NCBI RefSeq assembly: GCF_013315695.1
Contig: NZ_CP054353.1
DNA: 64,000 bases
Source: Escherichia coli
GTDB taxonomy: Bacteria; Pseudomonadota; Gammaproteobacteria; Enterobacterales; Enterobacteriaceae
Direction: 5' to 3' (one strand)
This document shows, piece after piece, positions 3,452-64,000 of this stretch. Below the pieces are notes generated by a model. The model saw nothing but the letters and a program-made list of their open reading frames with translations. It was not told where the DNA came from and searched no databases. The number at the start of each line of letters is the position of its first letter. Position 1 is the stretch's first letter. A program made the position numbers and the translations under genes.

Positions 3452-4566
3452 ATGAAGGGACAGATAATGGAATCGCTCTCAGAAGGAACCACAGCAGGCT
3501 ACCAGCAAATCCACGACGGCATTATTCATCTGGTCGATAGCGCCCGGACGGAAACGGTACGTAGTGTTAACGCGTTAATGACCGCCACATACTGGGAAAT
3601 TGGCCGACGAATTGTCGAATTTGAACAAGGTGGCGAGGCCAGGGCTGCGTATGGTGCGCAGCTAATCAAGCGACTATCAAAGGATTTACGTCTAAGGTAT
3701 AAGCGTGGGTTTTCCACCAGGAATTTATGGCAGTTTAAGAATTTTTATATTTGTTTTCAACGAATTGAAATTGTGCAGACACTGTCTGCACAATTCGCCA
3801 GACACTATCTGGCGAATCTTGCCATTTAGCGCAACTGGCCAAATCCTTCCCCCTGCCCTGGTCCACTTACGTCCGTTTGCTTTCTGTTAAAAACGCTGAC
3901 GCTCGTAGCTTTTATGAGAAAGAGACACTCCGCTGTGGCTGGTCTGCTCGTCAGCTCGAACGGCAAATTGCGACCCAATTTTATGAGCGGACACTACTGT
4001 CACATGACAAATCAGCCATGCTGCAACAACACGCTCCTGCCGAGACGCATATTCTTCCGCAACGGGCGATACGCGATCCCTTTGTGCTCGAATTTCTGGA
4101 ATTGAAAGATGAATATTCAGAATCCGATTTTGAGGAGGCGCTGATCAACCACCTGATGGATTTCATGCTGGAACTTGGGGATGATTTTGCCTTTGTTAGT
4201 CGACAGCGAAGGTTACGCATTGATGACAACTGGTTTCGTGTCGATCTGCTGTTTTTCCACCGCCGTTTACGCTGCCTGCTAATCGTCGATCTAAAAGTGG
4301 GCAAATTCAGCTATAGCGATGCCGGACAGATGAATATGTATCTCAACTACGCCAAAGAGCACTGGACGCTACCGGATGAAAATCCGCCCATCGGTCTGAT
4401 TCTCTGTGCAGAGAAAGGAGTCGGAGAAGCGCATTATGCACTGGCTGGTTTGCCTAACACCGTTCTGGCGAGTGAATATAAGATGCAACTACCTGATGAA
4501 AAACGACTCGCGGATGAACTCGTTCGAACACAGGCGGTGTTAGAGGAAGGCTATAGACGCCGTTAA
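3452..4566 (+). pseudogene. yhcG: yhcG-like DUF1016/PDDEXK-type protein, split into two frames (3452-3829 and about 3769-4566)
   Basis: Two adjacent ORFs in different frames together cover one YhcG-like protein; the conserved LPWSxY...ARSFYE segment lies in the downstream frame; frames overlap at a palindrome-rich segment. Confidence 0.6.
3769..3817. repeat. two overlapping perfect palindromes (P1 3769-3795, P2 3793-3817) with shared core CAGACAC(T)(G/A)TCTG
   Basis: Read directly: AATTGTGCAGACAcTGTCTGCACAATT and ATTCGCCAGAcactaTCTGGCGAAT. Confidence 0.8.
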
Positions 4567-8294: not shown

Positions 8295-9188
8295 TCACCC
8301 GCGCTCTTGCATCAACTGCTGGGCCAGCGCCTTCAGTTCTGGCAGATATTTTTCATCTACCGGACCAAACGGTTTGCGGCACAGCGGCACAGAAACGACA
8401 TCCATATAATGGAGGACAGTTTTCAGGCCGCGGAATACGCCCGTTTTGATCAGTAAATCAATGACTTTATTGCACTCAGTTTGCAGTTTCTGCGCGGTCT
8501 GGATATCGCCTTCTTTCAGCGCCTTAACAATGCCCTGATAACGCCAGCCCATGATGTTGTAGGTACTACCGATACCACCATCAGCGCCCGCCAGAAGACC
8601 AGAGGCGAAGATTTCGTCGTAACCGTTGTAGAGCACCAGATCCGGATGTTCACGACGGATCTGCTCCATCTGATAGAGATCGCCAGAGGTCTGTTTCAGC
8701 GCGCCAACACCTGGCAACGTAACCAGAGTGTTGATCTGATCCAGGCTCAGTTTAACGCCACTTAACGCCGGAATGTTGTACACCACCATCGGCAAACCAT
8801 CCGCTGAATCAATAATTGCCCGATAGTGATCGCAGTGTTCTTCAAAGCTGAAAGGATAGTAGAACGGCGTAACGGCAGAGACGGCATCGAAGCCATAACG
8901 TTTAGCCGATGCCGCAAGTTGTTGGCTTTCAGCAGTGCTGACGCAACCTACGTGAGCGATGAGTTTAATCTTGCCTTTCGCCTCTTCGGCGACGATTTCC
9001 AGTACCTGTTCACGCTCGGAAAGGCTTTGTACAAAGGCTTCGCCGGTAGAACCACCCACGTATAAACCGTCGATGCCCTGCTGAATATTGAACTGAACCA
9101 GGCGACGCAGACTCGCTTTATCCAGTGCTTGTTGTTGATCAAAAGGAGTCAGGAGTGCGGCCATTACGCCACGTAAATTCGTTGCCAT
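8295..9188 (-). CDS. nanA: N-acetylneuraminate lyase
   Basis: 297-aa ORF of the DHDPS/NAL class I aldolase family (GSTGE motif); first gene of the nan operon. Confidence 0.95.
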
Positions 9189-9223
9189 AAATACCTCTGA
9201 AGTGATGCTTGTCTGATAAACGA

Positions 9224-9246
9224 TATACCTTTATACCTGTTATACC
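9224..9246 (-). promoter_or_regulatory. NanR operator: three GGTATA repeats in the nanA promoter region
   Basis: Plus strand reads TATACCtttaTATACCtgtTATACC, i.e. GGTATA x3 on the nanA strand; NanR is known to bind GGTATA repeats. Confidence 0.75.
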
Positions 9247-9309
9247 AGATCAATTAAGCAACACCCCATACAGAAAGCTTATAATGCGATCTGCTTCACT
9301 AAAGTGGCA

Positions 9310-10101
9310 TTATTTCTTTTTGTTGGTGGTCTGACCGAAGGCGTGCCAGGTAGCAGAGACGCTGTTGAGATGCGATTGCAACGCGCGATCGGCTTCATCG
9401 GGATCGTGGCGGCGGATCGCGTCAACGATCGCAATATGCTGTTGATAGCTAACGTTGTTATGCTCGTGCAGAGCCTGATCAGCCACGGTTGGACGTGCGG
9501 CGATCAGCCAGTCGAGCAGGGCAACGTGGATCGCCATGAAGATTGGGTTACCGGGGATCTCCGCCAGCACGCGGTGGAAATCAACGTCTGAACGAATGAA
9601 TGCCGCGTTGTTATCCAGCGACTGACTGTTGATTTCCAGTGCTTTTGCCAGCAAATCGATTTGCTCATCGGTGGCGTGTTCAGCCGCATAGCGCACCAGG
9701 CTGGATTCAAAGAACAGACGTAATTGTTCGAAATGGGCAATCCCGCCAGGATGAGAAAGGAAATCTTTCGCCATGCCGGAAAGCTCGCCGATGATGGTGT
9801 CCGCAGAAGGACGTGAGACGCGAGCGCGTTCGCCGTTGTTTATCTGCACCAGACCTTTGCGTTTTAACGCTGCCAGCGCTTCACGCACCGAAGGACGCCC
9901 GACGTTAAAGAACGCCATCAGTTCGCGTTCAGACGGTAATTGTTCACCTTCGCCAAATTCACGACGGCGGATCATCTGTTCCAGCTCTTCTTCCACCATT
10001 TCGGAGAGTTTTTTACGCGCCAGCGGGCGGCTGCGTAAGTTGCGGCCAATTGCAGGTGAAGAATCTTCGGTTTGCGAATCAAATGCGTTCATAAGGCCCA
10101 T
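9310..10101 (-). CDS. nanR: nan operon repressor (GntR/FadR family)
   Basis: 263-aa ORF with N-terminal wHTH; upstream of nanA on the same strand. Confidence 0.95.
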
Positions 10102-11648
10102 TCTGTAAGGTCAGTGTGATTAACATCATCAGTGACATCCTATCACAGGATTGAAAGTAGGGGGAAATGGCGGGGTTTTCTCTTTGTGCCTCATCATTAC
10201 TATAATTAACTGAATAATTAACTATTGCGAAAAATTAATGTAACGCAGATAAAAACATCCCGACTGAATTATTCATAAGACTATTAACAAGTATTATGAA
10301 TATTATGAATGTGTTCTTACAAAATAATCATAAGCGCATATTTTTTAATGAAAAATCACCTCATCTACAATTAAAAACACGACATCCGCACCATAAATAG
10401 CCTTGCAAAAAATATAACATCATTGTTTTCAATCTGCCGTTTATGGGATTGACCGTTTTCTTTTGACACGGAGTTCAACAATGTTCGGCATAATTATATC
10501 TGTCATCGTATTAATTACGATGGGCTATTTGATCCTGAAAAACTACAAACCTCAGGTGGTGCTGGCTGCCGCAGGTATCTTCCTGATGATGTGCGGTGTC
10601 TGGTTAGGGTTCGGTGGTGTGCTCGATCCCGCCAAAAGCAGCGGCTACTTGATCGTCGATATTTATAATGAAATCCTGCGCATGCTGTCCAACCGCATTG
10701 CCGGATTGGGGCTGTCGATTATGGCAGTGGGTGGTTATGCCCGCTATATGGAGCGCATAGGGGCCAGTCGCGCGATGGTGAGCTTGTTAAGCCGCCCGTT
10801 AAAACTCATTCGCTCGCCGTATATTATTCTGTCGGCAACTTACGTCATCGGCCAAATCATGGCGCAGTTTATTACCAGCGCCTCCGGTCTGGGTATGTTG
10901 CTGATGGTCACCTTATTTCCGACGCTGGTGAGTCTGGGAGTAAGTCGCCTCTCTGCGGTGGCGGTTATCGCAACCACGATGTCCATTGAGTGGGGGATTC
11001 TGGAAACGAACTCCATTTTTGCTGCCCAGGTCGCAGGAATGAAAATTGCCACTTACTTCTTCCACTACCAGCTTCCGGTCGCCTCTTGCGTCATTATCTC
11101 GGTGGCGATCTCCCACTTTTTCGTGCAACGCGCTTTCGACAAAAAAGATAAAAATATCAATCACGAACAGGCAGAGCAAAAAGCTCTCGATAATGTCCCG
11201 CCGCTCTATTACGCCATTTTACCGGTGATGCCGTTAATCCTGATGCTCGGCTCGCTGTTCCTTGCCCACGTCGGGCTGATGCAGTCAGAACTGCATCTGG
11301 TGGTGGTGATGTTACTGAGTTTGACGGTGACGATGTTTGTTGAGTTCTTCCACAAGCATAACTTGCGCGAAACAATGGACGATGTGCAGGCGTTTTTTGA
11401 CGGCATGGGTACGCAGTTTGCCAACGTGGTAACGCTGGTGGTCGCGGGTGAAATATTTGCGAAAGGCTTAACGACGATTGGCACTGTCGATGCGGTTATC
11501 AGGGGGGCGGAGCATTCTGGTCTGGGCGGTATTGGCGTGATGATTATTATGGCGCTGGTCATTGCCATTTGTGCCATTGTGATGGGCTCAGGCGGTGATG
11601 CTGCCAACTTACTGATTTAGTGTATGATGGTGTTTTTGAGGTGCTCCA

Positions 11649-11924
11649 GTGGCTTCTGTTTCTATCAGCTGTCCCTCCTGTTCAGCTACTGACGGGGTGG
11701 TGCGTAACGGCAAAAGCACCGCCGGACATCAGCGCTATCTCTGCTCTCACTGCCGTAAAACATGGCAACTGCAGTTCACTTACACCGCTTCTCAACCCGG
11801 TACGCACCAGAAAATCATTGATATGGCCATGAATGGCGTTGGATGCCGGGCAACAGCCCGCATTATGGGCGTTGGCCTCAACACGATTTTACGTCACTTA
11901 AAAAACTCAGGCCGCAGTCGGTAA
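11649..11924 (+). CDS. insA: IS1 InsA (transposition inhibitor / N-terminal part of transposase)
   Basis: 91-aa ORF with zinc-finger-like CPSC...CSHC motif typical of IS1 InsA. Confidence 0.9.
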
Positions 11925-12346
11925 CCTCGCGCATACAGCCGGGCAGTGACGTCATCGTCTGCGCGGAAATGGACGAACAGTGGGGCTATGTCGGGGCTAA
12001 ATCGCGCCAGCGCTGGCTGTTTTACGCGTATGACAGGCTCCGGAAGACGGTTGTTGCGCACGTATTCGGTGAACGCACTATGGCGACGCTGGGGCGTCTT
12101 ATGAGCCTGCTGTCACCCTTTGACGTGGTGATATGGATGACGGATGGCTGGCCGCTGTATGAATCCCGCCTGAAGGGAAAGCTGCACGTAATCAGCAAGC
12201 GATATACGCAGCGAATTGAGCGGCATAACCTGAATCTGAGGCAGCACCTGGCACGGCTGGGACGGAAGTCGCTGTCGTTCTCAAAATCGGTGGAGCTGCA
12301 TGACAAAGTCATCGGGCATTATCTGAACATAAAACACTATCAATAA
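11843..12346 (+). CDS. insB: IS1 InsB frame (expressed as InsAB' transposase by -1 frameshift)
   Basis: 167-aa ORF overlapping insA in the -1 frame, as in canonical IS1. Confidence 0.85.
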
Positions 12347-12637
12347 GTTGGAGTCATTACCCGCTCAGGCAATGCGCCGTTTATGTCATTTGCCAGTCTT
12401 ATTCCGAATATCGCAGCCGGACTACATGTACCAGCGGTTGTAATGATTATGCCGATGCATTTTGCCACGACGCTAGCGCGCGCTGTTTCGCCGATTACTG
12501 CGGTGGTGGTCGTTACGTCAGGAATTGCAGGCGTTTCGCCTTTTGCGGTAGTGAAGCGGACAGCGATCCCCATGGCAGTCGGTTTCGTGGTGAATATGAT
12601 TGCCACTATCACGCTATTTTATTAAGCGATTAAAAAG

Positions 12638-12666
12638 ACAAAACAGGCCGCCAGGGCCTGTTTTAG
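12638..12666. terminator. bidirectional rho-independent terminator between dcuD and sspB
   Basis: Hairpin AACAGGCC-GCCA-GGCCTGTT flanked by an A-run and a T-run. Confidence 0.7.
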
Positions 12667-12668
12667 TA

Positions 12669-13166
12669 TTACTTCACAACGCGTAATGCTGGTCGACCAC
12701 CGCGTGGTGGCTGCGGTGGTTCATCGTCAGGATGAGTGTCATCATCGTGATCTGGCTTGTCGCCATCAATAACCGACATAACGGTTTCGTTGTCTGCCGA
12801 TGCCTCTTCATCATTCATGATGCTGGCATCTTCATCGTAGGCAGCTTCAGGTTCAAACATCGTGCCTGCGCCATTTTCACGGGCGTAGATAGCCAGCACG
12901 GCAGCCAGCGGCACAGAAACCTGACGCGGAATGCCACCAAAGCGCGCGTTAAAGCGCACCTCATCATTCGCCAGTTCCAGATTGCCGACAGCTCGCGGCG
13001 CAATGTTGAGTACGATTTGCCCGTCACGCGCATATTCCATAGGAACCTGCACGCCAGGGAGCGTCACATCCACCACCAAGTGCGGCGTGAGCTGGTTATC
13101 CAGCAACCACTCATAGAATGCACGCAGCAGATAGGGACGACGTGGTGTTAGCTGTGACAAATCCAT
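12669..13166 (-). CDS. sspB: stringent starvation protein B (ClpXP adaptor)
   Basis: 165-aa ORF with acidic C-terminal tail; directly downstream of sspA. Confidence 0.93.
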   Translation of the reverse strand: MDLSQLTPRRPYLLRAFYEWLLDNQLTPHLVVDVTLPGVQVPMEYARDGQIVLNIAPRAVGNLELANDEVRFNARFGGIPRQVSVPLAAVLAIYARENGAGTMFEPEAAYDEDASIMNDEEASADNETVMSVIDGDKPDHDDDTHPDDEPPQPPRGGRPALRVVK

Positions 13167-13171
13167 ACAGA

Positions 13172-13810
13172 TTAACTCCGGCCCAGACGCATTTCACGTT
13201 CAGCTTCAGTTAAAGAAGCAAGGAAAGAGTCACGCTCAAAGACGCGGGTCATATAGCCTTTCAGCTCTTTCGCACCCGGGCCGCTGAACTCGATGCCCAG
13301 TTGCGGCAAACGCCACAGCAGCGGAGCAAGGTAGCAATCGACCAGGCTGAACTCATCGCTCAGGAAGTACGGCTTCTGACCGAAGACCGGTGCAATCGCC
13401 AGCAGTTCTTCGCGCAGTTGCTTACGTGCGGCATCTGCTTCAGAAGCTGAACCGTTGATGATGGTGTTCATCAGCGTGTACCAGTCTTTTTCGATGCGAT
13501 GCATGTACAGACGGCTTTCACCGCGAGCTACCGGGTAAACAGGCATCAGTGGCGGATGCGGGAAACGCTCATCCAGATATTCCATAATGATGCGAGATTC
13601 CCACAGGGTCAGCTCACGATCCACCAGGGTCGGAACGCTCTGATTCGGGTTGAGGTCAATCAGATCCTGAGGCGGATTGTCCTTTTCCACGTGTTCGATC
13701 TCGAAACTTACACCTTTCTCAGCCAGCACAATGCGGACCTGATGGCTATAGATGTCAGTAGGACCGGAAAACAGCGTCATTACCGAACGTTTGTTGGCAG
13801 CGACAGCCAT
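13172..13810 (-). CDS. sspA: stringent starvation protein A (GST-like)
   Basis: 212-aa GST-fold protein; sspA-sspB operon. Confidence 0.95.
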   Translation of the reverse strand: MAVAANKRSVMTLFSGPTDIYSHQVRIVLAEKGVSFEIEHVEKDNPPQDLIDLNPNQSVPTLVDRELTLWESRIIMEYLDERFPHPPLMPVYPVARGESRLYMHRIEKDWYTLMNTIINGSASEADAARKQLREELLAIAPVFGQKPYFLSDEFSLVDCYLAPLLWRLPQLGIEFSGPGAKELKGYMTRVFERDSFLASLTEAEREMRLGRS

Positions 13811-14143
13811 GAAAACCTCCAGGTATAGTCAGAATTTTTACTGCTACCAGCCACCAGGTGGCCAGTCAGAAGTTGTGTTACCCAGTAAGGAACGACTCTC
13901 TTTGTTCGAAAATCAAACAAAAAATGAGCAATACCCGACATTTGGGCAGAAAATTGGATGATAGTTTACCAGATTTTGCGACCTTTGTGGTGAGTCGATG
14001 CCGGAAATGGGGAAAAAGAGATGCGCTTTAGTCTGAAATAGTTGACTTAGTCCCTTATTGGCGATGTGGTTTTTGTTTTGCCTGTTGTCAGACGGCAGCA
14101 AAAAGCAACTTTCCATTTTTTACGCTGATTCAGAATTTAGCCA

Positions 14144-14172
14144 TAAAAAAACCCGCCGAAGCGGGTTTTTTC
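14144..14172. terminator. rho-independent terminator downstream of rpsI
   Basis: AAAAAAACCCGC-CGAA-GCGGGTTTTTT hairpin with flanking A/T runs. Confidence 0.8.
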
Positions 14173-14203
14173 GCAAATTGTTTTCTGCCGGAGCAGAAGC
14201 CAA

Positions 14204-14599
<396 letters not shown>

Positions 14600-26962: not shown

Positions 26963-28423
<1,461 letters not shown>

Positions 28424-28455
28424 TTAGTTACTGCAGTAGAGGATTTTTTACGGCT

Positions 28456-28489
28456 GCCGGATGCGGCGTGAACGCCCTGTCCGGCCTAC
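28456..28489. repeat. REP element
   Basis: GCCGGATGCGGCGTGAACGCCCTGTCCGGCCTAC matches the canonical enterobacterial REP consensus. Confidence 0.85.
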
Positions 28490-28563
28490 GGTTATGTTCC
28501 GGCTCGTTGGCCTTTGGCAACGATTATCATATGAGATTGGGGCAATTACGCGCCCTCGTCAAA

Positions 28564-31500
28564 TCATTGCGCTTTTTCTTTACGCGGTTGGCGCAACACT
28601 TCGTTGATTTGCGGATCGTCCAGCGGACCCGAAATGTGATAGCGCAAAATGGAGACTTTGCTCCACAGCGGCCCCAGCACTTTACTGGCTGCAAACACTG
28701 CCGCGCCAACAATGGGGTTAACCGCAAAAGCCGCAGCCACGCCCACCGTCGCAGAAATCTCTGGTGCGACAACCGCTTCCATATTCAGGTCGCGACGCAC
28801 CAGATTTACCGACCCTTTCATGGCAATGTCCGCTTCCAGGCCATCCACCAGCGTGTCGTCGGTGTGCATAACGCCGTCTTTAATCCACGCGGTGCTGCGA
28901 ATGGAGTCAAAATAGAACCCTTCACCAAAGGTGTCTCTGAAATCAAAACGCAGCTTACGCATCAGGGCATCAACGCTCAATAAGCGCAGCAATTGCCCGG
29001 CATGTCCGGTATTGATTTCGGTAATTTCGCCTTTGCCCAGTTGAGTATGAATGATGCCATTCAACGTCGCCTCATCTGGTTGCCAGGGTGCTTTGCGCCA
29101 GTGTAAATCGTAATCCACATTAAATGACGACTGGCGTATGGGCGTCGTGACACCAAAAAATTCTGCGGCGGCATCAATTTTCTGCCCACGCAGTTTTCCT
29201 TTCAGCGAGGTGCGTTCATTTCCCGGATTGTTAACCCATTCACCATCGGCAGTAAGCCGCGAGAAACCAGTATCAATCAGTCCATTGGTCAGCGTTAATG
29301 TATTGCCAGAAATGGTGATATCACTGTCAATGCGCCCGAATTTTTGCCCCCAGAACCAGCACTCTGCGCATCGTATTTGGGCGTCCGGCCAGCCACGGAA
29401 GTTAATGCGCTCCGTTGTCGGGAAAGATGATGACTGTGTTGAATCACCACGAGTTTTCGCCACGCTCGGGTTGTAATAAAGATATTTGATATTCGCCAGC
29501 CACGGCGCGTTATTACGCATCGCCAGCGTGGCGTTGATTTCACGCCCTTGCGCCTCAACCAGGGTGCCATTTGCCGTCGGTTGCGAAACAATACTCAGGT
29601 TATTCCATTGCTGATTTCCCAGCGACAACATAGGCGTACGTAACGTTATGTGTTGTGGGAAACTCGCTGCACCACCGACACTCTCCGCCGCGCCTTTCTG
29701 GAACAGGGCCAGCCACTCGGCACCATTCATCGGCGGCATATTGAGTTCAACGCCACTTTGTTCCGGCAACGGCGGGAGCGTTTTACTGTCTGCCGCCCAA
29801 ATAGCACGATCGAGCGTCAGCTTTTGACCGAGCAACCAGCGGCTATTGAAATGGTTATCCGCACCTGCCTGTCCGGTTAATTCAAAGCTGTTGAGATTGC
29901 CATCAACCTTAACGTTTACCGGTAGTGGTTCACCCGCAGGTTTGGCTAACGGTGAAGGTAAGTGACTGCTCACATTCTTCAGATCGCCGTTCAGCTCTAC
30001 GTTATAGGTCGCGCCAGCATGATAAGGCAACTCAATGCCCACTTTACCATCCCACGCCACGCTGCCATTTAATGCTTCGTTCACCGCTTCAGGCAGAACG
30101 CCGGTTTTCGCTGGTTGCCAGTTACCGTTGAGATTCACCGCGACCTGGTAGGCTTTTGCCCCTTCTTTGGTGGAAAAATCCACGTTCAACGGCTGATTAA
30201 ACCAGCTTGCTGTCAGTGGTTCACTTTGCAGATCGCCATTAATAAAGCTGAATTTCCCGCTCAAATTTTTCAGGGTGCTGTCGAGTGGTTTGATAAACAG
30301 ACTGTTATTACGCAGCGTCACTTCACCTTTCGCGGTTACCAGTTCGCCGTTCAGCGGGATATCAAGATGTAAGCGAGCATTCACATCGCCGTCGAGCTGG
30401 AGTTCTTGCAGGGTCGCACCCAGAGAATCTTTCAGCGGTGTCTCATCAAAGTAAGGGCCGACGGCTTTACCCGGGCCTTTAATGTCAGCGTCAATCAGCA
30501 GTTTTTCTTTTGAGTAGTCAGGGATCACTGCGGTGAGATTACTCGCACGCACGCCGCCCAGATTAACGCCATCGGTTTTCATCCATAAACCGTCGTTAAT
30601 AAAGTCCAGTTCAATATCAAGGTTAGTTAATGCAGGCCAGTCCGGCTGGAAGGCAAACTTCGCGTTGCGCAGCGGCACCAGCACTTCAAACTGACCTTCA
30701 TTGTGTTTATAGGGGAAGAGTTGCGGATTGCCACCATAAACCAGCGTCGCGTTATCCGCTTCACCGCCCTGAATCGCGCCACTTAAGTAATCAACCAGGT
30801 CTTTACCCATCAAGTTTTCCGGGAAATAGCGCCAGGCTTGTGAACCATCATCGGTACTGATGCCAGCCAGAATACCCAGCCAGGGTTCATCGTTAGCAGG
30901 TTGCAGGTAACGAAAATCGCCGCGCGCATGGACGGCTTTGGCTTTAACGTCAATATTACGTCCATCCAGCTGGAAACCTTTGTCATTGTTCAGCCAGCTT
31001 ATCGTTGCCTGGCCGTCGGCGATTTCCAGTGGCGCGCGGAATACCGTTTCGTAAGGCATCTTTGCCTGCTTCATCGACGCAGTAAGCAAACCATTTTCTA
31101 CGCTGCCGGAAAGCGTCCCGGAGAAGTGTTCCGCACCCGGTAATAATTTCCATTGCTTCCAGGCCAGATCGCTCCACGATGCCTGAAAACGGGTCTTGTC
31201 TGCCGCCTGAAGCGGGATATCCAGCGCCAGAGTGTTAATCTTGCCGCTCGGTTGTGTGGAGCGCCAAACATCACCCAGTGCAGGTGAAAGTTTCGCGACC
31301 AGCGGGCGTACGCCCTCCAGGCCTGCCAGCTCCAGATTACTGGCGCGAATCCGGAGTTCGTCACTGCGTTTATTGTCTTTGCCTCTAACGTCCTGTTCCG
31401 GTATCCAGGCCAGCGTCAATGCTCCGCTCGGCCAGGGTTTGCCGTCCATCGTGATCCGTGTATCGGGAATAGAGAACTGCCATCCCGGATTTTCACGCGT

Positions 31501-32364
31501 AATATGCGCAGTCAGATTATCCACCGACAGCGTATGTGTTTCCTTCTCGCCCAACCAGCTGGCACCGCCCTGTTTCAGCCAGACGTCACCGCCGGTTACA
31601 TCGCCTTTGTCGATCGTCATCCAGCCTTCAAGGGAGAACTGTGCCGTTTCCAGCGCAATATTGTCCTGCATCCATTTACCGAGCCACGGCTTCAGGTCGA
31701 TGTCATCCGCCTGGAGCCAGACGCGACCATTGCTTAACAACCCCTCATCATCGCGCAAATCCATGCGCACCTGCATCACGCCGTGCTGTCCGGTAAGGCT
31801 GGAGAGGCTTACCAGGCCTTCCGCACGGTGTCGACGTGGATCGTTCAGCCAGGTGAGCTGTGGGATCGCCAGCTCGGCGCGCTGACCGGATAGCGTCAGG
31901 AAACTGACTTCACTGTCGCGGAGATCGAAATGGTCAAATTGACGAAGAAAAAGATCGCTGATGTGACTGGCTTCCAGGCTATCATTACCACCACCGCTGG
32001 TGATAGGAGTGTTGGTGCGAAAGCGCAGCTGCCAGAAAGTGAGGTCGCGAAACTGCCAGCGCATATGTAACAAGCTCTGCCAGACATCCAGCGCCAGAGT
32101 AACGCGTTTAACCGAAAATTCGCCGCCATCTTTTAGTTCTGCACGGATGTCGTGCGCTTCAAGCGTCGGACCAAAATTCTGCCAGCTGGCTGAGAGCTGA
32201 CTGGCTTCTACCGGCATGCCAGTCGCGGATTCTATTTTGTTGAGGATTTCCGGACGCCAGGCGTCAAGATGCGGTAAAGCAATACGCAGGCCGCTAACCA
32301 GCAGGGCAGCGATCACAACGAGCGCAGCTCCAGTAAGCAGTAAAATCCCCGGCAATCGCCTCAC
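28564..32364 (-). CDS. yhdP: AsmA-family envelope protein YhdP
   Basis: 1266-aa ORF with N-terminal TM anchor; between tldD and rng. Confidence 0.92.
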   Translation of the reverse strand: MRRLPGILLLTGAALVVIAALLVSGLRIALPHLDAWRPEILNKIESATGMPVEASQLSASWQNFGPTLEAHDIRAELKDGGEFSVKRVTLALDVWQSLLHMRWQFRDLTFWQLRFRTNTPITSGGGNDSLEASHISDLFLRQFDHFDLRDSEVSFLTLSGQRAELAIPQLTWLNDPRRHRAEGLVSLSSLTGQHGVMQVRMDLRDDEGLLSNGRVWLQADDIDLKPWLGKWMQDNIALETAQFSLEGWMTIDKGDVTGGDVWLKQGGASWLGEKETHTLSVDNLTAHITRENPGWQFSIPDTRITMDGKPWPSGALTLAWIPEQDVRGKDNKRSDELRIRASNLELAGLEGVRPLVAKLSPALGDVWRSTQPSGKINTLALDIPLQAADKTRFQASWSDLAWKQWKLLPGAEHFSGTLSGSVENGLLTASMKQAKMPYETVFRAPLEIADGQATISWLNNDKGFQLDGRNIDVKAKAVHARGDFRYLQPANDEPWLGILAGISTDDGSQAWRYFPENLMGKDLVDYLSGAIQGGEADNATLVYGGNPQLFPYKHNEGQFEVLVPLRNAKFAFQPDWPALTNLDIELDFINDGLWMKTDGVNLGGVRASNLTAVIPDYSKEKLLIDADIKGPGKAVGPYFDETPLKDSLGATLQELQLDGDVNARLHLDIPLNGELVTAKGEVTLRNNSLFIKPLDSTLKNLSGKFSFINGDLQSEPLTASWFNQPLNVDFSTKEGAKAYQVAVNLNGNWQPAKTGVLPEAVNEALNGSVAWDGKVGIELPYHAGATYNVELNGDLKNVSSHLPSPLAKPAGEPLPVNVKVDGNLNSFELTGQAGADNHFNSRWLLGQKLTLDRAIWAADSKTLPPLPEQSGVELNMPPMNGAEWLALFQKGAAESVGGAASFPQHITLRTPMLSLGNQQWNNLSIVSQPTANGTLVEAQGREINATLAMRNNAPWLANIKYLYYNPSVAKTRGDSTQSSSFPTTERINFRGWPDAQIRCAECWFWGQKFGRIDSDITISGNTLTLTNGLIDTGFSRLTADGEWVNNPGNERTSLKGKLRGQKIDAAAEFFGVTTPIRQSSFNVDYDLHWRKAPWQPDEATLNGIIHTQLGKGEITEINTGHAGQLLRLLSVDALMRKLRFDFRDTFGEGFYFDSIRSTAWIKDGVMHTDDTLVDGLEADIAMKGSVNLVRRDLNMEAVVAPEISATVGVAAAFAVNPIVGAAVFAASKVLGPLWSKVSILRYHISGPLDDPQINEVLRQPRKEKAQ

Positions 32365-32431
32365 CCGTCACTCCTTGTCTGCTAAAAATGTGACTCAAAA
32401 ACCCTTTGCCGGATGGCGGCCCAGCATCTGT

Positions 32432-33901
32432 TTACATCATTACGACGTCAAACTGCTCCTGGTTATAGAGCGGTTCAATTTGTACTTTAACCTGTTTGCC
32501 AACGAAAATTTCCACTTCCGCCAGCGAGTGTGACTCTTCGCCTTTCAAGGCTTCGGCTACTGCCGGAGAAGCATAGACCAGGAAACGGTCGGAGTCGTAA
32601 GCATGGTGGACACGAACAATCTCGCGCATGATTTCATAGCATACCGTTTCCACGGTTTTCACCGTTCCGCGACCGTGGCAGGTTGGGCATTCGTTACACA
32701 GTACGTGCTCAATGCTTTCGCGGGTGCGTTTACGCGTCATCTCCACCAGCCCCAGCGCCGAAAAACCATTAACGCTGGTTTTCACCCGATCTTTGCTCAA
32801 CGCCTGCTCCAGCGAGTGCAGCACGCGGCGGCGGTGATCTTCATTATTCATATCGATGAAATCAATAATGATAATCCCGCCCAGATTACGCAACCGTAAC
32901 TGGCGAGCGATAGCCTGCGTCGCTTCAATATTGGTATTGAAAATGGTGTCGTCCAGATTGCGATGACCGACAAACGCCCCGGTATTGATGTCCACGGTGG
33001 TCATCGCCTCGGTCTGGTCGATAATCAGATAGCCACCGGATTTCAGTTCTACTTTGCGTTCCAGCGCCCGCTGGATTTCGTTTTCGACATCAAAGAGATC
33101 GAAAATCGGCTGGCGTCCGGTGTAATGCTCCAGCTTGCTGGTCATCTCGGGAATGTACTCCGAGGTAAACTCCAGCAATGCTTCGTAAGTCAGGCGTGAG
33201 TCAACGCGAATGCGGTCGAGTTCGGCGTCGGCGAAATCACGCAGAACACGCTGCGCCAGCGCCAGTTCGCCGTACAGCTGATAACGGGTCTGTGGGCGCT
33301 TTTTACGCTCCATAACTTTGGTCCAGACGCGTTTCAGATAAGCGGCATCGGAGGCCAGTTCAGCCTCGCCAACCCCTTCCGCTGCGGTACGGATGATAAA
33401 CCCGCCCTGCTCGTCGCAATACTCTGCGACCACTTTTTTCAGGCGTTCACGTTCTGATTCGCTTTCAATTCGTTGGGAAACCCCAACGTGAGAAGCCCCT
33501 GGCATAAATACCAGATAGCGAGAAGGCAGCGTGATATCGGTGGTCAGGCGCGCACCCTTAGTGCCAAGCGGATCTTTCACCACCTGCACCATCAGATCTT
33601 GCCCCTGACGGACCAGCTCCGAGATGTCGCGCACCGTGAATTGCTTTTGTTCTTCACCCGCCACACATTCGGTGTGCGGCATGATGTCAGATGCATGAAG
33701 AAACGCGGCTTTATCCAGCCCAATATCTACAAAAGCCGCCTGCATACCCGGAAGTACACGACTTACACGACCCTTGTAGATATTGCCTACTATTCCGCGT
33801 CGCGCCTCACGTTCAATATGAATTTCCTGCAGAATACCGCCATCAATATACGCCACTCGCGTTTCCGAAGGCGTTACGTTTACTAACAATTCAGCCGTCA
33901 T
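32432..33901 (-). CDS. rng: ribonuclease G
   Basis: 489-aa RNase E/G family protein with S1 domain; start at MTAELLVNV. Confidence 0.95.
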
Positions 33902-41431: not shown

Positions 41432-42296
41432 CGCAACCTCCGTCATGCTTGAAAAAGCTTGTCGGAGTATGTGATGAATGCTGCAAACTCACCGAAGCCG
41501 ATTTTGCCACCAAATCGGCTTTTTTATTGTCACGCGGCAAATTCTGAATGCATCACATAGCCGCACTGCCGCCTGACAAAACAGTTTACCTTCTGCAAAA
41601 TGGGGGGAATAATCTGATTTTATTTGATTACAAATTAACCACTTAAACCTATTTAATGCTGAGCATTGTCAGTCGGTTGATTTTGCGTGCTTTAGCATTC
41701 ACATCTATCCAGACGATGCAGTGAAAATTGGGTAATCCCCAGCAACCGCTGCGTAATGTCGTCTATCTTGTCGCGATCCTGGCATCCCTACATTATTTGT
41801 GGTCTGTGAAGATTATCTCATTGCAGCCCCTCATCTTCGCAGGGCTGGCTTTACAGCTTTTCACCTTACGTTATAAGAAGTTCCGTCGATGATGGCGCTA
41901 ATTTCGTGAATTGTGCGGCTTGTTGCAAATTACACGGTGTTGAAGGTTATTTACATGTTAGCTGTTGATTATCTTCCCTGATAAGACCAGTATTTAGCTG
42001 CCAATTGCTACGAAATCGTTATAATGTGCGACCTCGTCCTCCCTGACGCAGTTTTTGCGCTGCGGAAAAGGTGACATTGGCGCAACGAAGGTATATTTTG
42101 TTTTTTGCCGGAGGATAGCAGCAGATCGCTGCACAATGTCCGTCAAGTCTAACATTGACACTCTGGGGCAAAATAGACCGGCGTCCCGGCCTGCTGGAAT
42201 TTATCGCTATGCATACAGCTGTCGGGGCATACGCTTTACAGACGGCGGTGAAACGCCTGTCACAATCACACTAAACAAAGAGTACGGAACCCACTC

Positions 42297-44174: not shown

Positions 44175-44208
44175 ACGCCGGGCCTGTTAACGCTGCCCGG
44201 CGTTTTTA
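44175..44208. terminator. rho-independent terminator after accC (also downstream of the convergent islet operon)
   Basis: CGCCGGGC-loop-GCCCGGCG hairpin followed by T5. Confidence 0.7.
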
Positions 44209-44218
44209 TTGCCGTTAG

Positions 44219-45265
44219 CTAACGGTAGCTTGCAATTTCCGCTTTCAACGCGCTAATTTCAGCATCGCCATCAACAATTCCCAGCTCAAAGCAGTATGTC
44301 TTTGTTTCCCCTGGCTCTATAAAGGGCAGACGCCCCTGCGCTCGTTCTTTATCACGACCGTCAGGAAAACTATTGCTGACCTCCAGCCCCATAACATATT
44401 CACCCGCGCCTAAATTTTTCCAGTGGATAAAGTTGGGTAGCTGCATGGTGTCGAATTTCTCGTAAATTCCCCACCCCAGTTCGGCGTTCACCAGCGCAAC
44501 TTTACTCATCCCCTGACTGTCGCTATTCAACGTGAGATAGTAAACCTGCTCGTCAAAACCGGGCTGTGGGGTACAAATCTCCAGATGACTGGTTAACCCT
44601 TCCGCCGCATGCGGGGTTCGTGGCGTTACGCTTTTAGCCGACAGCAAGATTTCTGCCTGTGGCGATAATAAAGGCCAGCCGTAATTAAAGTGATAAAGAA
44701 TTTGCAGCGGCTGGCGGGTGAAACCATGATTAGTCACCTTGTCTTCAATGCGCAGCACATTTTCGCCATAACGGCAGCGAATGGTCCTTTCCAGCGTCAG
44801 ATTTTCACCGAACAATCGTGTTTCCCGTACTTTGCCATTGATGACAAATTCAATGCCGTCGTCGGTCCGTTCTGTGCGATACCCCACCTCTTCTGCTGGA
44901 GTCGCAGCCAAACGCCCGTGTAACCCCAGCGTTTCTCCGTTATCCTCACAGGGCGTGCCAATGTAGCTAAGTCCGCAGGTAGTCAGTAACCCCGCGTAGA
45001 AGCTACGTAAAAACCCGTTGCCCTGAGACTCAAAAAAAGCGGGGGCGACAATGCCGTTGGGGGTGATAAAAGAGAGCGCAGTATCCTTGTAGCTGGCCCA
45101 TGCAATATCCAGCGCGCGATCTTTTACCACCGTAAATGCCAGTCCCGCACCAGTACGGACATCAAACGCTTCTGTCCCCTTTGCTCTGCCACTACGTAAC
45201 TCATAGTGTTTAATTCCGGCAACCTGCGAGAGATCGCCAATCCACGACCAAATTTCGTTTTTCAT
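44219..45265 (-). CDS. mutarotase-like / DUF4432-like protein (islet)
   Basis: 348-aa ORF overlapping the upstream kinase stop by 4 bp; family assignment from memory only. Confidence 0.6.
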   Translation of the reverse strand: MKNEIWSWIGDLSQVAGIKHYELRSGRAKGTEAFDVRTGAGLAFTVVKDRALDIAWASYKDTALSFITPNGIVAPAFFESQGNGFLRSFYAGLLTTCGLSYIGTPCEDNGETLGLHGRLAATPAEEVGYRTERTDDGIEFVINGKVRETRLFGENLTLERTIRCRYGENVLRIEDKVTNHGFTRQPLQILYHFNYGWPLLSPQAEILLSAKSVTPRTPHAAEGLTSHLEICTPQPGFDEQVYYLTLNSDSQGMSKVALVNAELGWGIYEKFDTMQLPNFIHWKNLGAGEYVMGLEVSNSFPDGRDKERAQGRLPFIEPGETKTYCFELGIVDGDAEISALKAEIASYR

Positions 45266-46224
45266 TGTGCTGCTTCCCGAATGGACATGTCATGGCGCTG
45301 GATGAACGCTTCGATTTCCGCAAGGCGAGACGTTCCCTCCATTGGGCCACGTCGGGTTACCGCCAGTGCACCGCAGGCGTTGGCATATTGTAATGCCCGA
45401 TGGGCGTCAAACCCTAGCTGGCGGCAGGCAATCCACGCGCCACCAAAACAGTCTCCCGCACCGGTCGGGTCAACTTCTTCCACCGGATAGCTCTCAACAT
45501 GAAACTGCTCATTCGCGGAGTAGTAACTGGCACCTTGATTGCCGCGCTTCACAATCACCTCTTTAACACCTTCTTCAAGAAAACCAGCGATTGCACGCTC
45601 CGGTGTCGAGTGTGGCGACAAGAGCAACACTTCTCCCTCGCTGGGCATATAGATATCTGTTAACTCAAGAACAAAGTGGAGGGCGTCACGCATTTCTGGA
45701 ATATCGAGCATCTCTTTCCGAATATTAGGGTCAAAAGAAATAACGCCACCATTCTCTTTTACAATGGTTACCGCTTTCTTTACTGCGTCTACCATATGGA
45801 ATGAAAACAGGGATGAACCCATAATATGAAAATGGGTACAGTCCTTCAGAATATTTTCATCAACATGCTGCGCCGATAATTTACCGCAAGCGGCATTCTT
45901 GATATTAAAAATAAAATCGCGATCGCCAGAGTTATGATAAGTAACAAAGGCACTCCCGGTAGCTTCCAGAGGTAAGACTGAAATCCCCCTGATATCCACA
46001 CCGTCAGCAGCCAGACGATGTATATTAATATCACCAAAGCCATCATTCCCCACACAGCTAATGATGCCGCACGGAACGCCAAGACGTGTCACCTGGTCGA
46101 TAAAAATAGCGGGTGCGCCACTGGGATAAGGGCCGTTCCAGATACCTGGTTGATCAAATGGCTGGCCGATTTTACTCGCCATAATTTCAACCAGAATTTC
46201 TCCAATTGTGAAGACCTTACTCAT
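45262..46224 (-). CDS. PfkB-family sugar kinase (islet kinase 1)
   Basis: 320-aa ORF with ribokinase-superfamily motifs (GG..N.A, DPTGAGDCF anion-hole). Confidence 0.85.
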   Translation of the reverse strand: MSKVFTIGEILVEIMASKIGQPFDQPGIWNGPYPSGAPAIFIDQVTRLGVPCGIISCVGNDGFGDINIHRLAADGVDIRGISVLPLEATGSAFVTYHNSGDRDFIFNIKNAACGKLSAQHVDENILKDCTHFHIMGSSLFSFHMVDAVKKAVTIVKENGGVISFDPNIRKEMLDIPEMRDALHFVLELTDIYMPSEGEVLLLSPHSTPERAIAGFLEEGVKEVIVKRGNQGASYYSANEQFHVESYPVEEVDPTGAGDCFGGAWIACRQLGFDAHRALQYANACGALAVTRRGPMEGTSRLAEIEAFIQRHDMSIREAAQ

Positions 46225-46245
46225 ATGATTAATTCCTTGAAATGA

Positions 46246-47235
46246 TTAGCTGCGTTTTCTTTTATTTCTTACGTCAAAATAAACGGCTACAAGAATGACT
46301 AATCCTTTAACCACCATCTGATAGAAATAGGGAACGTTCATTAAGTTCATGCCATTATTAATAACGCCGATGGTTAATGCCCCGATTACCGTCCCCACCA
46401 CGGTTCCATAGCCGCCGTTCAGGCTGGTGCCTCCCAGTACAGCCGCAGCAATAGCATCCAGTTCGTAGCTCAACGCGGAATTCGGTTGCCCGGAATAGAG
46501 GCGTGAGGCGAGGATCATCCCGCTGATACCTGCCAGCACAGCTGTAATCATAAAGACTTTTATTTTCAAGCGGGTGACATTTATCCCTGAATAAACTGCC
46601 GCTTCTTTATTACCACCAGTGATATAAATCTTTCGTCCAAAGGTTGTTTTAGTAAGAATGAAATGGTTAATCAGCAATAAGATAATTAATATCCAGATTG
46701 GAATAGGTATATAGAGAAATTCTCCATTCCCCAGCGCCAGAAAGGCATCATCTTTAATCATGATGGGCATACCATCGGTCACTATATAAGCGATACCACG
46801 GAAGATCCCCATAGTAGCAACGGTGACAATAAACGACGGGATCCCCGCTATAGCCGTCAAGCCACCATTTATCATCCCCAGAGCCAGGGCTGCAATAATG
46901 GATAATGGGACCAATAAAATAAATGGAATTCCCCATGAAGCCCCAAGCGCAGCAAATGTGCCAATCAATGCAATGGTTGAACCAACCGATAAATCAATAT
47001 CGCCAAGCAAAAGTACGTAAGTCATTCCATAGGCGGTAATTGCAATTATCGAAACCTGAAGAATAATATTAGTAATGTTATTGGCGGTAAAAAAACTGTC
47101 ATTAATAAAACTGAACAGAATGATTAACACCACCATTCCACTGAGGATACCGCCATATTGCCTGAAGACTTTTTTAAAATTATTTGCAATGGGAATTTCC
47201 GAAGGTTTCGGACTGGCAAGAGTTTTCTCTGTCAT
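46246..47235 (-). CDS. sugar ABC transporter permease (RbsC/AraH-like)
   Basis: 329-aa polytopic membrane protein abutting the ATPase gene. Confidence 0.85.
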   Translation of the reverse strand: MTEKTLASPKPSEIPIANNFKKVFRQYGGILSGMVVLIILFSFINDSFFTANNITNIILQVSIIAITAYGMTYVLLLGDIDLSVGSTIALIGTFAALGASWGIPFILLVPLSIIAALALGMINGGLTAIAGIPSFIVTVATMGIFRGIAYIVTDGMPIMIKDDAFLALGNGEFLYIPIPIWILIILLLINHFILTKTTFGRKIYITGGNKEAAVYSGINVTRLKIKVFMITAVLAGISGMILASRLYSGQPNSALSYELDAIAAAVLGGTSLNGGYGTVVGTVIGALTIGVINNGMNLMNVPYFYQMVVKGLVILVAVYFDVRNKRKRS

Positions 47236-48735
47236 TTAACGTACTCCTGTTGCAGCGGTCATTACCTGTGTCTGCGTTAAATTTTCACATGAATAAATAT
47301 CGGCAATCGTTTTATTACGCATTACCACCAGACGATCGCTAAGTGCCATGACTTCTGGCAGTTCAGAGGACACCAGAATAATTGCTGTCCCTGCCGCAGC
47401 CAGTTGACGTATCACGTTATAGATTTCAAATTTTGCGCCGACATCCACTCCGCGCGTTGGCTCATCGAGCAATAAAATACGCGGAGTTTTCTCCAGCCAC
47501 TTCGATAACACGATTTTCTGTTGATTACCGCCGCTCAGTGCTCCCACTGCCTGATGTACAGAACTCACTTTAGTGTTCATTCTGGCAATTGATTGCAGCG
47601 TCTTCGCCTCTTCTTGTCGGTGATTGATAAGTCCTATCCGCGAAGCGTTATATTGAAACGCCACATGGTGCGTGTTCATATTGACGTCGTGCATCAGCAC
47701 TAACCCTTCTTCCTTGCGGTTTTCGGTCACAAAAGCAATGCCATGATCAATAGCCTGTTTGGGATTAGCGATCCTGACTTCCTTACCATCAATCAACACA
47801 GTCCCGTGATACGAAACGAGGCCAAATAGCGCCTTCATCACATCGGAACGCCCGGCCCCCACCAGGCCAAAAAATCCGAGGACTTCCCCCGGACGCACAG
47901 CGAAACTGACCTCTTTAAAAAGCGAAGGATGGGAAAGGTTTTTTACTTCCAGTTTTGCAGGAACATTTTCATCCGGCTTTTCCCCAAGACGTGCTGGCCA
48001 AATATTTTTCATTTCCCGACCAACCATTTGGGCAATCAAATGCTGGATATCACTGTTTTTCTTTTCATGCGTAGCGATATACTCACCGTCGCGGATCACC
48101 GAAATATCATCTGAAATCCGCATAATTTCATCCATGCGATGAGAGATATAAATAACCGCACAACCTCGCTGCTTTAATTTCTCAATAATGTTAAACAGAA
48201 TCTCTGCTTCATTATCACTTAGCGAAGATGTCGGTTCATCCATAATCACGACATCTGCTGCATAGCTTAAGGCTTTGGCAATTTCTACCAGTTGCCTATG
48301 TGCCATCGACATATTGCCGACCATTTCCAGCGGATCCAGTGGGATGCCCAGTTCCGCGAGGAGATTCTGGCAATCTGCGAGCATTTTTTTATCGTTAATA
48401 ATGCCAAAACGTCGCGGTTCATTATTGGCATAAATATTTTCCGCCACGGTCATATTATTACTCAGGCTCAGTTCCTGAAAAATAATCGCAATCCCTAACT
48501 GGCGAGAATGCTGCGGATTATTAATGGTGATGGTTTCACCACGTAGTGTTATCGTTCCCTGGGTTGGCGGATAAACACCGGCGAGTATTTTCATTAATGT
48601 CGATTTACCGGCACCATTCTCGCCTAATAAAGTATGCACCCGCCCTTTACGTAAAGAGAGGGTAATATCTTTTAATGCCTGAACATGACCAAATGTCTTC
48701 GCAATATGCGAAACATCAAGAATAACATCCGTCAT
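47236..48735 (-). CDS. sugar ABC transporter ATP-binding protein, duplicated-domain type (RbsA-like)
   Basis: 499-aa ORF with two ABC cassettes (Walker A GENGAGKST, signature LSGGNQQK). Confidence 0.88.
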   Translation of the reverse strand: MTDVILDVSHIAKTFGHVQALKDITLSLRKGRVHTLLGENGAGKSTLMKILAGVYPPTQGTITLRGETITINNPQHSRQLGIAIIFQELSLSNNMTVAENIYANNEPRRFGIINDKKMLADCQNLLAELGIPLDPLEMVGNMSMAHRQLVEIAKALSYAADVVIMDEPTSSLSDNEAEILFNIIEKLKQRGCAVIYISHRMDEIMRISDDISVIRDGEYIATHEKKNSDIQHLIAQMVGREMKNIWPARLGEKPDENVPAKLEVKNLSHPSLFKEVSFAVRPGEVLGFFGLVGAGRSDVMKALFGLVSYHGTVLIDGKEVRIANPKQAIDHGIAFVTENRKEEGLVLMHDVNMNTHHVAFQYNASRIGLINHRQEEAKTLQSIARMNTKVSSVHQAVGALSGGNQQKIVLSKWLEKTPRILLLDEPTRGVDVGAKFEIYNVIRQLAAAGTAIILVSSELPEVMALSDRLVVMRNKTIADIYSCENLTQTQVMTAATGVR

Positions 48736-48795
48736 AATGACCTCGGTGTCACAACAAAACGTCGATAACGTTTTGTTGTGAAATGAAGATGTTTA

Positions 48796-49686
48796 TCATT
48801 TACCTGTATAAACGCCGGGTTGTACCGGGATCATTTTTTCTACCGGTTTACCATTGAGGTGATCAACAGCGGCATCAATGGCTTTAGCACCCATTTGATC
48901 GGGATATTGCCGAATCACGGCCGCAAACGTTTTTTCACTGTCAACGGCATCACGCGCTTCTTTCATGCCGTCAAAACCAATGATTTTGATGTTGTCGTTA
49001 TGCGCAGATTTCGCTGCGATAACCGCTGCCAGCGCCGCATCATCACCAAAGCCAAACAGACCATTCAGGTTGGCATTTGCCTGCATAATGTTTTGCGCAG
49101 TCGTTAACGCTTCAGCCCGCGTAATACCAGGCTGTTCAGCAACAATTTTAATATCCGGTGTATCGCTTAACCCTTTCTTAAAACCATCAACGCGCGCAAC
49201 CACCGATTGTAATGCCGGATAAGAAATAATGGCTACAGTACCTTTACCATTCAAAAGTTTGCCCATTAACTTGCCTGCTTCAACGCCTCCCGCGTAGTTA
49301 TCGGTCGCAACATGCGATACGACCGGAACGCCTTCCGCAGCGACGTCGACGGTGATAACGGGAATACCGGCCTTATCGGCTTTAATTATCGCCGCCTGGA
49401 CGCCTTTCGAATCGACCGGAGAGATAATAATGGCATCCACTTTTTTAGTAATAAAATCCTCAACATCAGAAAGTTGTTTGTTTAAATCCTGATTGGCAAT
49501 AGAGACACTTAAATTGACATTGTCTTTTTTTGCCTCTTCTTTCATGGCATTCGCAAGATCAATATAGAAAGGATGTTGCTGTGTTAATAATGACGCACCA
49601 ATTTTATACTCTTTTGCCAACGAGCTTTGCGAGAACAATGCCAGGCTCACCAACATAGCTGAACCAAGTAATTTAATATTTTTCAT
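48796..49686 (-). CDS. periplasmic sugar-binding protein (RbsB-like)
   Basis: 296-aa ORF with signal peptide MKNIKLLGSAMLVSLALFSQSSLA. Confidence 0.85.
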   Translation of the reverse strand: MKNIKLLGSAMLVSLALFSQSSLAKEYKIGASLLTQQHPFYIDLANAMKEEAKKDNVNLSVSIANQDLNKQLSDVEDFITKKVDAIIISPVDSKGVQAAIIKADKAGIPVITVDVAAEGVPVVSHVATDNYAGGVEAGKLMGKLLNGKGTVAIISYPALQSVVARVDGFKKGLSDTPDIKIVAEQPGITRAEALTTAQNIMQANANLNGLFGFGDDAALAAVIAAKSAHNDNIKIIGFDGMKEARDAVDSEKTFAAVIRQYPDQMGAKAIDAAVDHLNGKPVEKMIPVQPGVYTGK

Positions 49687-49721
49687 AAATAATCCTCATT
49701 GTTTTTGTAGGGTACAACATC

Positions 49722-50603
<882 letters not shown>

Positions 50604-50917
50604 TTACAAAATGAAGAAAGAGAATCTTCACTTTCATTTTGAAAGCAAACTAGCACAGCAAAAGCGGCAAAAAGCGTGATGCATGTCGAATATCATCAAA
50701 ATAACTTACAAAAAATAACTTAATTTGTTTTTTACTTTGTAAGTGAAACCAATGACACCTCTGCATAAATATGAATATATTCATTTATTTTTCAATGTAT
50801 TAAGCTATTTTCGTTGCGATTTTTGACCCATGATTTTCTTTTCGAATTGTCGATATTATTGAAGGGTAACTTTCAAAGAAAAATACAAGGGGCTATAGTG
50901 TTACGCATTAAAGGCCA

Positions 50918-51748
50918 ATGAAGAGTGTTAACGTGCCGAGAAAATCGTCTAACCTACTGAAACGCAGATTAAAAATTGCAGAAATTGTTGCCGCCCAGGG
51001 TGAAATCAAAGTTGATGACTTATCTGCGCAACTTGGTGTCTCTAGCGTGACGATCCGCGGCGATCTCAGTTATCTGGAGCAACAGGGATATTTAAAGCGA
51101 TCATTTGGCGGTGCTATTGCGACACCACTCTCCTCTGAACCAGAAGCGATACAACCGATCGCGCCGTTGTCTCTGGCACAACAAATGGAAATAGCACGAC
51201 ATTGCGCACGGTTAATTCGGGATCGTGACACGCTATTTCTTGGACATGGGACAATCTGCCGTAAGATCATTCCCTTGCTCAGCGAAGTGAAAAAACTGCG
51301 TCTGATCACCAACGATCCCGAACATGCGCTGCTGGCAAATCAGTTTATTGATGGCGAAATAATACTGGCTGGCAGTGAAATGCTGCGCCCCGATACCGCA
51401 CTGGCCGGAAAACCTCTCGAACAGGCACTTCAGCATTTCACCATTACACATAGCATTCTGGAAATCAGCCATCTGGATGCTGATGGTACTTTAAATATCA
51501 ACGTTCCCAGACTTGCCGCTGCCTGGCAGCTCTGTTTCGATAATGCCCAGAATAAGACGGTTATCGTTGCCGCCGATCCTGCGCCATCAACGGCTGCTAT
51601 CGGGCATTTGCATCAAGCAGAAAATGTGATCGTCAGCCGCAGCATTAACGAACAATATCAGCAACAATTGCAGTCGGCTGATTTCGTTATCCTTTATACC
51701 AGTAATGAGTGCTTTACCTGGTCCAATCGCGAAAGGCTTCAGGAATGA
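50918..51748 (+). CDS. DeoR-family transcriptional regulator
   Basis: 276-aa ORF with N-terminal DeoR HTH (LSAQLGVSSVTIRGDL) and sugar-phosphate-binding C-domain; divergent from the aldolase-ABC operon. Confidence 0.8.
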   Translation: MKSVNVPRKSSNLLKRRLKIAEIVAAQGEIKVDDLSAQLGVSSVTIRGDLSYLEQQGYLKRSFGGAIATPLSSEPEAIQPIAPLSLAQQMEIARHCARLIRDRDTLFLGHGTICRKIIPLLSEVKKLRLITNDPEHALLANQFIDGEIILAGSEMLRPDTALAGKPLEQALQHFTITHSILEISHLDADGTLNINVPRLAAAWQLCFDNAQNKTVIVAADPAPSTAAIGHLHQAENVIVSRSINEQYQQQLQSADFVILYTSNECFTWSNRERLQE

Positions 51749-51758
51749 GAGGGGTTTT

Positions 51759-60454: not shown

Positions 60455-60465
60455 GGTAATCTGAC

Positions 60466-63246: not shown

Positions 63247-63301
63247 GGTGATGCTGCCAACTTACTGATTTAGTGTATGATGGTGTTTTTGAGGTGCTCC
63301 A

Positions 63302-63999: not shown

Positions 64000-64000
64000 G

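Follow-up and report, generated by a model that had tools for sequence, protein, structure and literature searches.

The gene dcuD encodes the fourth of the Dcu C4-dicarboxylate carriers, a silent member that belongs to the DcuC family. In Escherichia coli K-12, the gene (yhcL, b3227) lies between nanR and sspB, encodes 455 amino acids, and is intact. A passage in PMC6414658, citing Janausch and Unden 1999, describes dcuD as silent, as does a more recent preprint (bioRxiv 10.1101/2025.03.13.642450). IS1 is defined by features that include insA, insB, and the A6C frameshift; its promoter, PIS1, overlaps the left terminal inverted repeat (IRL), and the element makes target duplications of 8 or 9 bp (PMC12428005). 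The DNA analyzed here is a stretch of 64,000 nucleotides from E. coli, referred to as the window. Its dcuD likewise lies between nanR and sspB but is split after codon 371 by an IS1 element, and the last 84 residues are missing from the predicted product. The coordinates of the features are listed in Table 1.

Table 1. Features of the interrupted dcuD gene and IS1 insertion sites found at this locus in other strains, numbered by window position
Feature	Position	Strand	Basis or remark
IS1 site in 042 and K-12 C3026	10173-10180	+ in 042, - in K-12 C3026	Same 8 bp
IS1 sites in EC31, UTAK-5, 258E	10208-10216, 10310-10317, 10464-10473		
dcuD (yhcL) 5' fragment, codons 1-371	10481-11593	+	ORF list; partial pseudogene in AF3 and MSB1_4I; identical to intact dcuD of relatives
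Recurrent IS1 site CTGTCATCG, dcuD codons 7-10	10500-10508	Both orientations	Evo1, FDAARGOS_1282, S1-CAM-01-C, GmM062, PRO_A-1443 (with adjacent deletion)
Intragenic dcuD IS1 site in TUM1586	11177-11184		
Left duplication copy GGCTCAGGC, codons 369-371 (Gly-Ser-Gly)	11585-11593	+	Ancestral sequence
Complete IS1, IS1A type, 768 bp	11594-12361	+	Co-oriented with dcuD; PGAP 'IS1-like element IS1A family transposase' in AF3 and MSB1_4I
IRL, left terminal inverted repeat, GGTGATGCTGCCAACTTACTGAT	11594-11616	+	
Promoter-like match	11601-11628	+	Overlaps IRL, where the IS1 promoter is described
TAG stop of truncated DcuD	11618-11620	+	ORF list, translation
insA, 91 aa, repressor with zinc-ribbon and HTH domains	11649-11924	+	PF03811, PF12759
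A6C slippery heptamer AAAAAAC, -1 programmed frameshift	11900-11906	+	Sequence; PGAP 'programmed frameshift'; PMC12428005
insB frame	11903-12346	+	Fused to insA by the -1 frameshift, giving the 232-aa transposase InsAB'
IRR, right terminal inverted repeat, ...ATCAATAAGTTGGAGTCATTACC	12339-12361	-	
Right duplication copy CGCTCAGGC	12362-12370	+	C at 12362 derived (ancestral G); 12363-12370 is the exact 8-bp repeat
dcuD 3' fragment, codons 372-455 and stop codon	12371-12625	+	Partial pseudogene, note 'YhcL'
Terminator-like hairpin between convergent dcuD and sspB	12639-12665		Matched on both strands

The split gene starts with the ATG at 10481. Removing IS1 together with the right-hand 9 bp gave an ORF of 1368 nt and 455 amino acids with no internal stop, which agrees with the single in-frame ORF of about 455 amino acids proposed in an earlier reading of the sequence alone (the sequence-only reading). 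That reading also suggested a comparison with strains lacking the insertion. In the three close relatives MS 21-1, AF14, and AF10, dcuD is intact and matches the restored gene at 1368/1368 positions. The interrupted gene was identified as dcuD because the restored protein matched the NCBIfam equivalog NF007317 with 1027 bits (cut-off 623), scored 368 bits against the model for true DcuC (NF007937), which is under the cut-off of 513, is encoded between nanR and sspB, and carries the PGAP note 'YhcL'. The restored protein also matched TIGR00771 with 674.6 bits and, across residues 2-454, PF03606 with 471.5 bits. A K-12 strain shows the gene order nanR-dcuD-sspB-sspA as well. DcuD had no match when solved structures were searched by sequence, and no Rfam RNA families were found in positions 9000-14500. 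The sole paper containing both 'dcuD' and 'IS1' (PMC4591121) was set aside as irrelevant, since 'IS' is a peak label there and dcuD is merely the gene nearest to a sigma-54 site.

The gene order of the window runs from gltBD through the nan operon, nanR, dcuD, sspBA, and rpsI-rplM and, further on, to acrEF. Other features were seen along the way. The gene for a PDDEXK nuclease-domain protein at 3467-4566 is a frameshifted pseudogene in the annotation of AF3, which is base-for-base identical to the window there. A cytochrome b family fragment at about 41590-41890 is partial with an internal stop in AF3 (a pseudogene remnant). From accC to yhdT (about 44200-52700), the window encodes an aldose 1-epimerase, two sugar kinases, an ABC transporter, a class II tagatose-bisphosphate-family aldolase, and a DeoR regulator. 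As accC and yhdT adjoin in K-12, this sugar-utilization cluster would presumably be an accessory island.

The sequence-only reading described a complete 768-bp IS1 within dcuD, and the anatomy of the element confirms this. The 768 bp are identical to IS1A of K-12 MG1655 at 767 positions and contain insA, the A6C site, and a 232-aa InsAB' fusion frame without stops. All InsAB' profile scores were above their cut-offs (PF03811, 73.9 bits; PF12759, 98.4 bits; PF03400, 260.7 bits; NF033558, 245 bits), and the InsA zinc-ribbon, HTH, and IS1 DDE domains are all present. The length of about 768 bp and the imperfect ends of about 23 bp (GGT.../...ACC) are those of the IS1 family. IRL and IRR match at 18 of 23 positions, the inverted repeat was also found by an independent repeat search, and the right end of the element at 12361 reads ...GGAGTCATTACC. 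The coding and terminal features are all intact, and identical copies are present at two sites in the window. One correction concerns the interval 11585-12370, which was given for IS1 but holds only for IS1 plus both copies of the duplication, as the element alone is shorter at each end.

The predicted product of the interrupted gene consists of 371 native residues followed by eight foreign ones encoded by IRL (GDAANLLI) and then a stop, so 84 of 455 residues are lost. In the hydropathy profile, the break lies inside the most hydrophobic segment of DcuD (residues 343-378), and about three more hydrophobic segments are deleted. Because of the position of this break, the loss of these segments, and the single continuous transporter domain of the protein, dcuD is very likely non-functional. 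The earlier claim that IS1 inactivates dcuD stands as far as disruption is concerned; the inactivation we infer from the hydropathy profile and the extent of the domain. Transcription of dcuD and sspB is convergent, with the terminator-like hairpin between the two genes, and a polar effect would not be expected.

The flanks of the element had been described as a 9-bp duplication with one mismatch, and this was borne out by the relatives. MS 21-1, AF14, and AF10 carry the empty site (...ATG GGC TCA GGC AAT...), which proves the duplication. Since the empty site reads G at the position corresponding to 12362, the C found there in the window is derived. The flanks can be read as 9 bases with one mismatch or equally as 8 exact bases and an extra C, and either length is one that IS1 is described to produce. 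An independent repeat search reported the exact 8-bp direct repeat GCTCAGGC alone, at 11586-11593 and 12363-12370 with a spacing of 777. By our own arithmetic, at least eight of nine bases would match by chance with a probability of about 1e-4, given a single fixed pair of positions.

The mismatch is more likely to date from the insertion than from later drift, and we lean moderately toward the odd C at the IRR junction being a scar of the insertion event itself. One form of such a scar would be an exact 8-bp duplication and a carried-in C, either a nucleotide from the donor flank or an error in gap repair or processing. The other would be a gap-filling error at the last position. A later substitution is unlikely because the nearest empty-site relative is so close (2 SNPs in about 7.5 kb). 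With this distance and no substitutions in the other 1359 bases of dcuD, only about 0.002 substitutions would be expected in 9 bp by our own arithmetic. The odd base also lies directly at the end of the IS, and the result of the repeat search favors a scar. The exact 8-bp form is consistent with the 8-bp duplications that are common among the natural IS1 insertions examined (042, K-12 C3026, UTAK-5, ATCC 8739, and TUM1586). However, 12 of the other IS1 duplications examined are perfect, at 8 or 9 bp, and an extra base is absent from all other IS1 junctions examined. Both forms lengthen dcuD by 777 bp, and the sequence alone does not distinguish them. If true, a carried-over donor base would inform on the processing of the 5' strand by IS1.

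The sequence-only reading also proposed a survey of related strains for the same insertion as a lineage marker. Among 5426 complete E. coli genomes, the insertion was found as one uninterrupted match in two: AF3, from blood in the UK (NZ_OZ547117.1), and MSB1_4I, from a rectal swab in Australia. Both have junctions identical to those of the window, including the odd C, and in both the insertion is already annotated in RefSeq. Two SNPs and one indel (about 2 bp) separate the window from AF3, and a single SNP within the dcuD IS1 (11725, G to A) separates it from MSB1_4I. The sites of the differences from these sisters are at about 16445 (the zapE-zapG intergenic region), 13391, 14663, and 11725. 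Because a few SNPs separate each of them from the window, AF3 and MSB1_4I are independent isolates and assemblies, and the small differences from both make the window strain a third isolate of the sub-lineage. Nothing useful emerged from the literature on MSB1_4I, CP101915, and CP137705.

These genomes bear on the possibility of an assembly artefact, which the sequence-only reading named as the finding that would overturn it. A collapsed or misplaced IS1 repeat could have been put into dcuD, and the many IS1 copies of this lineage create the situation in which short-read assemblies fail. We give this explanation next to no chance because the same junctions are present in two independently assembled complete genomes from different countries, each with SNPs relative to the window. 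Moreover, a proper target duplication borders the element, and the empty site is reconstructed perfectly.

The insertion is recent and, by these comparisons, marks one sub-lineage. The next closest genomes, MS 21-1, AF14, and AF10, are 99.9% identical over 11.6 kb, and in MS 21-1 only 2 of 7524 flanking bases differ from the window. The site is empty in these relatives and dcuD has no substitutions, so the insertion was judged to be recent, in line with the earlier reading's "fairly recent". Import of an IS1-bearing dcuD allele from another lineage by homologous recombination was considered as well, since recombination is frequent in E. coli and plasmids widely carry IS1 copies of identical sequence. 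It is extremely unlikely: the flanks match those of the closest empty-site relatives (0 differences in dcuD, 2 in 7.5 kb), and the junction occurs in no other lineage among the 5426 genomes. Insertion in place remains the preferred reading.

A second IS1 copy also points to a recent event. It begins at 63247 on the plus strand, runs past the end of the window at 64000, and is identical to the dcuD copy at 754/754 positions. This copy truncates the efflux pump gene acrF (start 60466), and its junction is common to AF3 and MSB1_4I only. In AF3, where its duplication could be seen, this is a perfect 9 bp, TACTTTATG. At least 40 pieces matching IS1 were found in each of AF3 and MSB1_4I, compared to 19 places in MS 21-1, and this higher copy number suggests an expansion of IS1 in the sub-lineage. 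The corresponding region of AF3 (26974-32793, equivalent to window 58963-63246) has an extra IS1 in the acrS-acrE intergenic region that is absent from the window. The acrE-acrF' segment of AF3 is inverted between oppositely oriented IS1 copies, with CACCTAATG in inverted orientation at the new junctions. This arrangement is the signature of intramolecular replicative IS1 transposition.

IS1 elements at the dcuD locus were also found in other strains. In the 5426 genomes, IS1 lies within reach of dcuD in the same orientation in 31 and in the opposite orientation in 26, the latter detected with a synthetic query containing a reversed IS1. A first search had placed every IS1 co-oriented with dcuD. 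This apparent orientation bias was rejected since that search joined same-strand pieces only and the reversed query found the 26 further genomes. Regional enrichment of IS1 at dcuD was rejected as well because the 57 genomes are close to the prediction from uniform density, a rough estimate that assumes about 11 chromosomal IS1 copies per 5 Mb and covers about 4.8 kb. Recurrence at individual sites stands. The CTGTCATCG site was used independently at least four or five times, by IS1 variants about 91-99.7% identical to the window element, and the tables suggest about 17 genomes with this junction. It overlaps the left arm of a small hairpin-forming inverted repeat at 10503-10523 (TCATCGTA-TTAAT-TACGATGG). 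In some strains (2017-02-1CC, F95, and PRO_A-1443), the nan operon or a portion of the intergenic region has been lost through deletions adjacent to IS1.

IS1 is known to prefer AT-rich DNA. The recurrent sites, some of them in the nanR-dcuD intergenic region, are in AT-rich DNA (22-41% GC). The insertion site of the window is about 48% GC and was found in one lineage only. These observations help to weigh whether disruption of dcuD was positively selected, through adaptive loss or altered expression. Many strains have an independent IS1 in dcuD or upstream (at least five junctions at 10500-10508, with others at 11177-11184 and 10173-10180), and a passage in PMC6414658, citing Valle et al., describes a dcuD mutant with altered fermentation yields, both of which would fit selection. 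Selection is nevertheless very unlikely, as the 31 and 26 genomes approximate the uniform-density expectation, the recurrent sites have the base composition that IS1 prefers, dcuD is reported to be silent, and the window's site was used by one sub-lineage only. At bgl, IS insertions act as on-off switches. A broader proposal is that the dcuD locus is hit for a reason beyond passive target preference, with insertions selected for switching dcuD on or off, the window insertion an adaptive inactivation, and, separately, the odd base perhaps a donor nucleotide. We see a slim chance that this is correct. The recurrent site at the 5' end of dcuD and the junction mismatch may be of interest for the target choice and mechanism of IS1.

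The independent IS1 disruptions in other strains, together with the published silence of the gene, make dcuD look dispensable, which agrees with the suggestion of the sequence-only reading that the gene is dispensable or cryptic. Neutral loss of dcuD would be the simplest reading of these data. Overall, we are highly confident that an IS1A-type element transposed in place into dcuD in the ancestor of this sub-lineage, probably with neutral loss of the gene. On this reading, the element entered codons 369-371 of chromosomal dcuD in a recent common ancestor of the window strain, AF3, and MSB1_4I. The transposase presumably made staggered cuts in the target and gap repair duplicated GGCTCAGGC, with one base by IRR now C and not G. 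Translation of dcuD would then enter IRL for eight codons and stop, and this single-domain membrane carrier would lose its C-terminal 84 residues. For a monocistronic gene that is silent in laboratory conditions, a polar or phenotypic cost would not be expected. The insertion would be a neutral by-product, so far as we can infer, of the IS1 expansion in the lineage.

Such an outcome is unsurprising given the known behavior of IS1; the element is an ordinary one, and the gene it entered is silent. It represents one more natural knockout consistent with the dispensability of dcuD. The dcuD and acrF insertions form a clean and stable pair of markers with a possible use in typing this IS1-rich sub-lineage, which includes human blood and gut isolates.

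The element shares its length, IRL and IRR, insA, A6C site, 232-aa InsAB', and 8- or 9-bp duplication with IS1A and IS1E of K-12 and plasmid IS1. IS1 copies 100% identical to the dcuD element are present on enterobacterial plasmids, with at least ten plasmids among the matches listed. The single base that separates it from K-12 IS1A is at position 444, where it has G instead of T. This substitution would presumably change Ser to Arg in InsB. Relative to K-12 IS1A and IS1E, the dcuD copy has a new location and one mismatched duplication base at the IRR junction. The other natural insertions at the dcuD locus involve the same element family and are likewise simple insertions with 8- or 9-bp duplications. 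They differ in that they occupy different sites in both orientations, often with divergent IS1 elements (91-97% identity), and their duplications are perfect.
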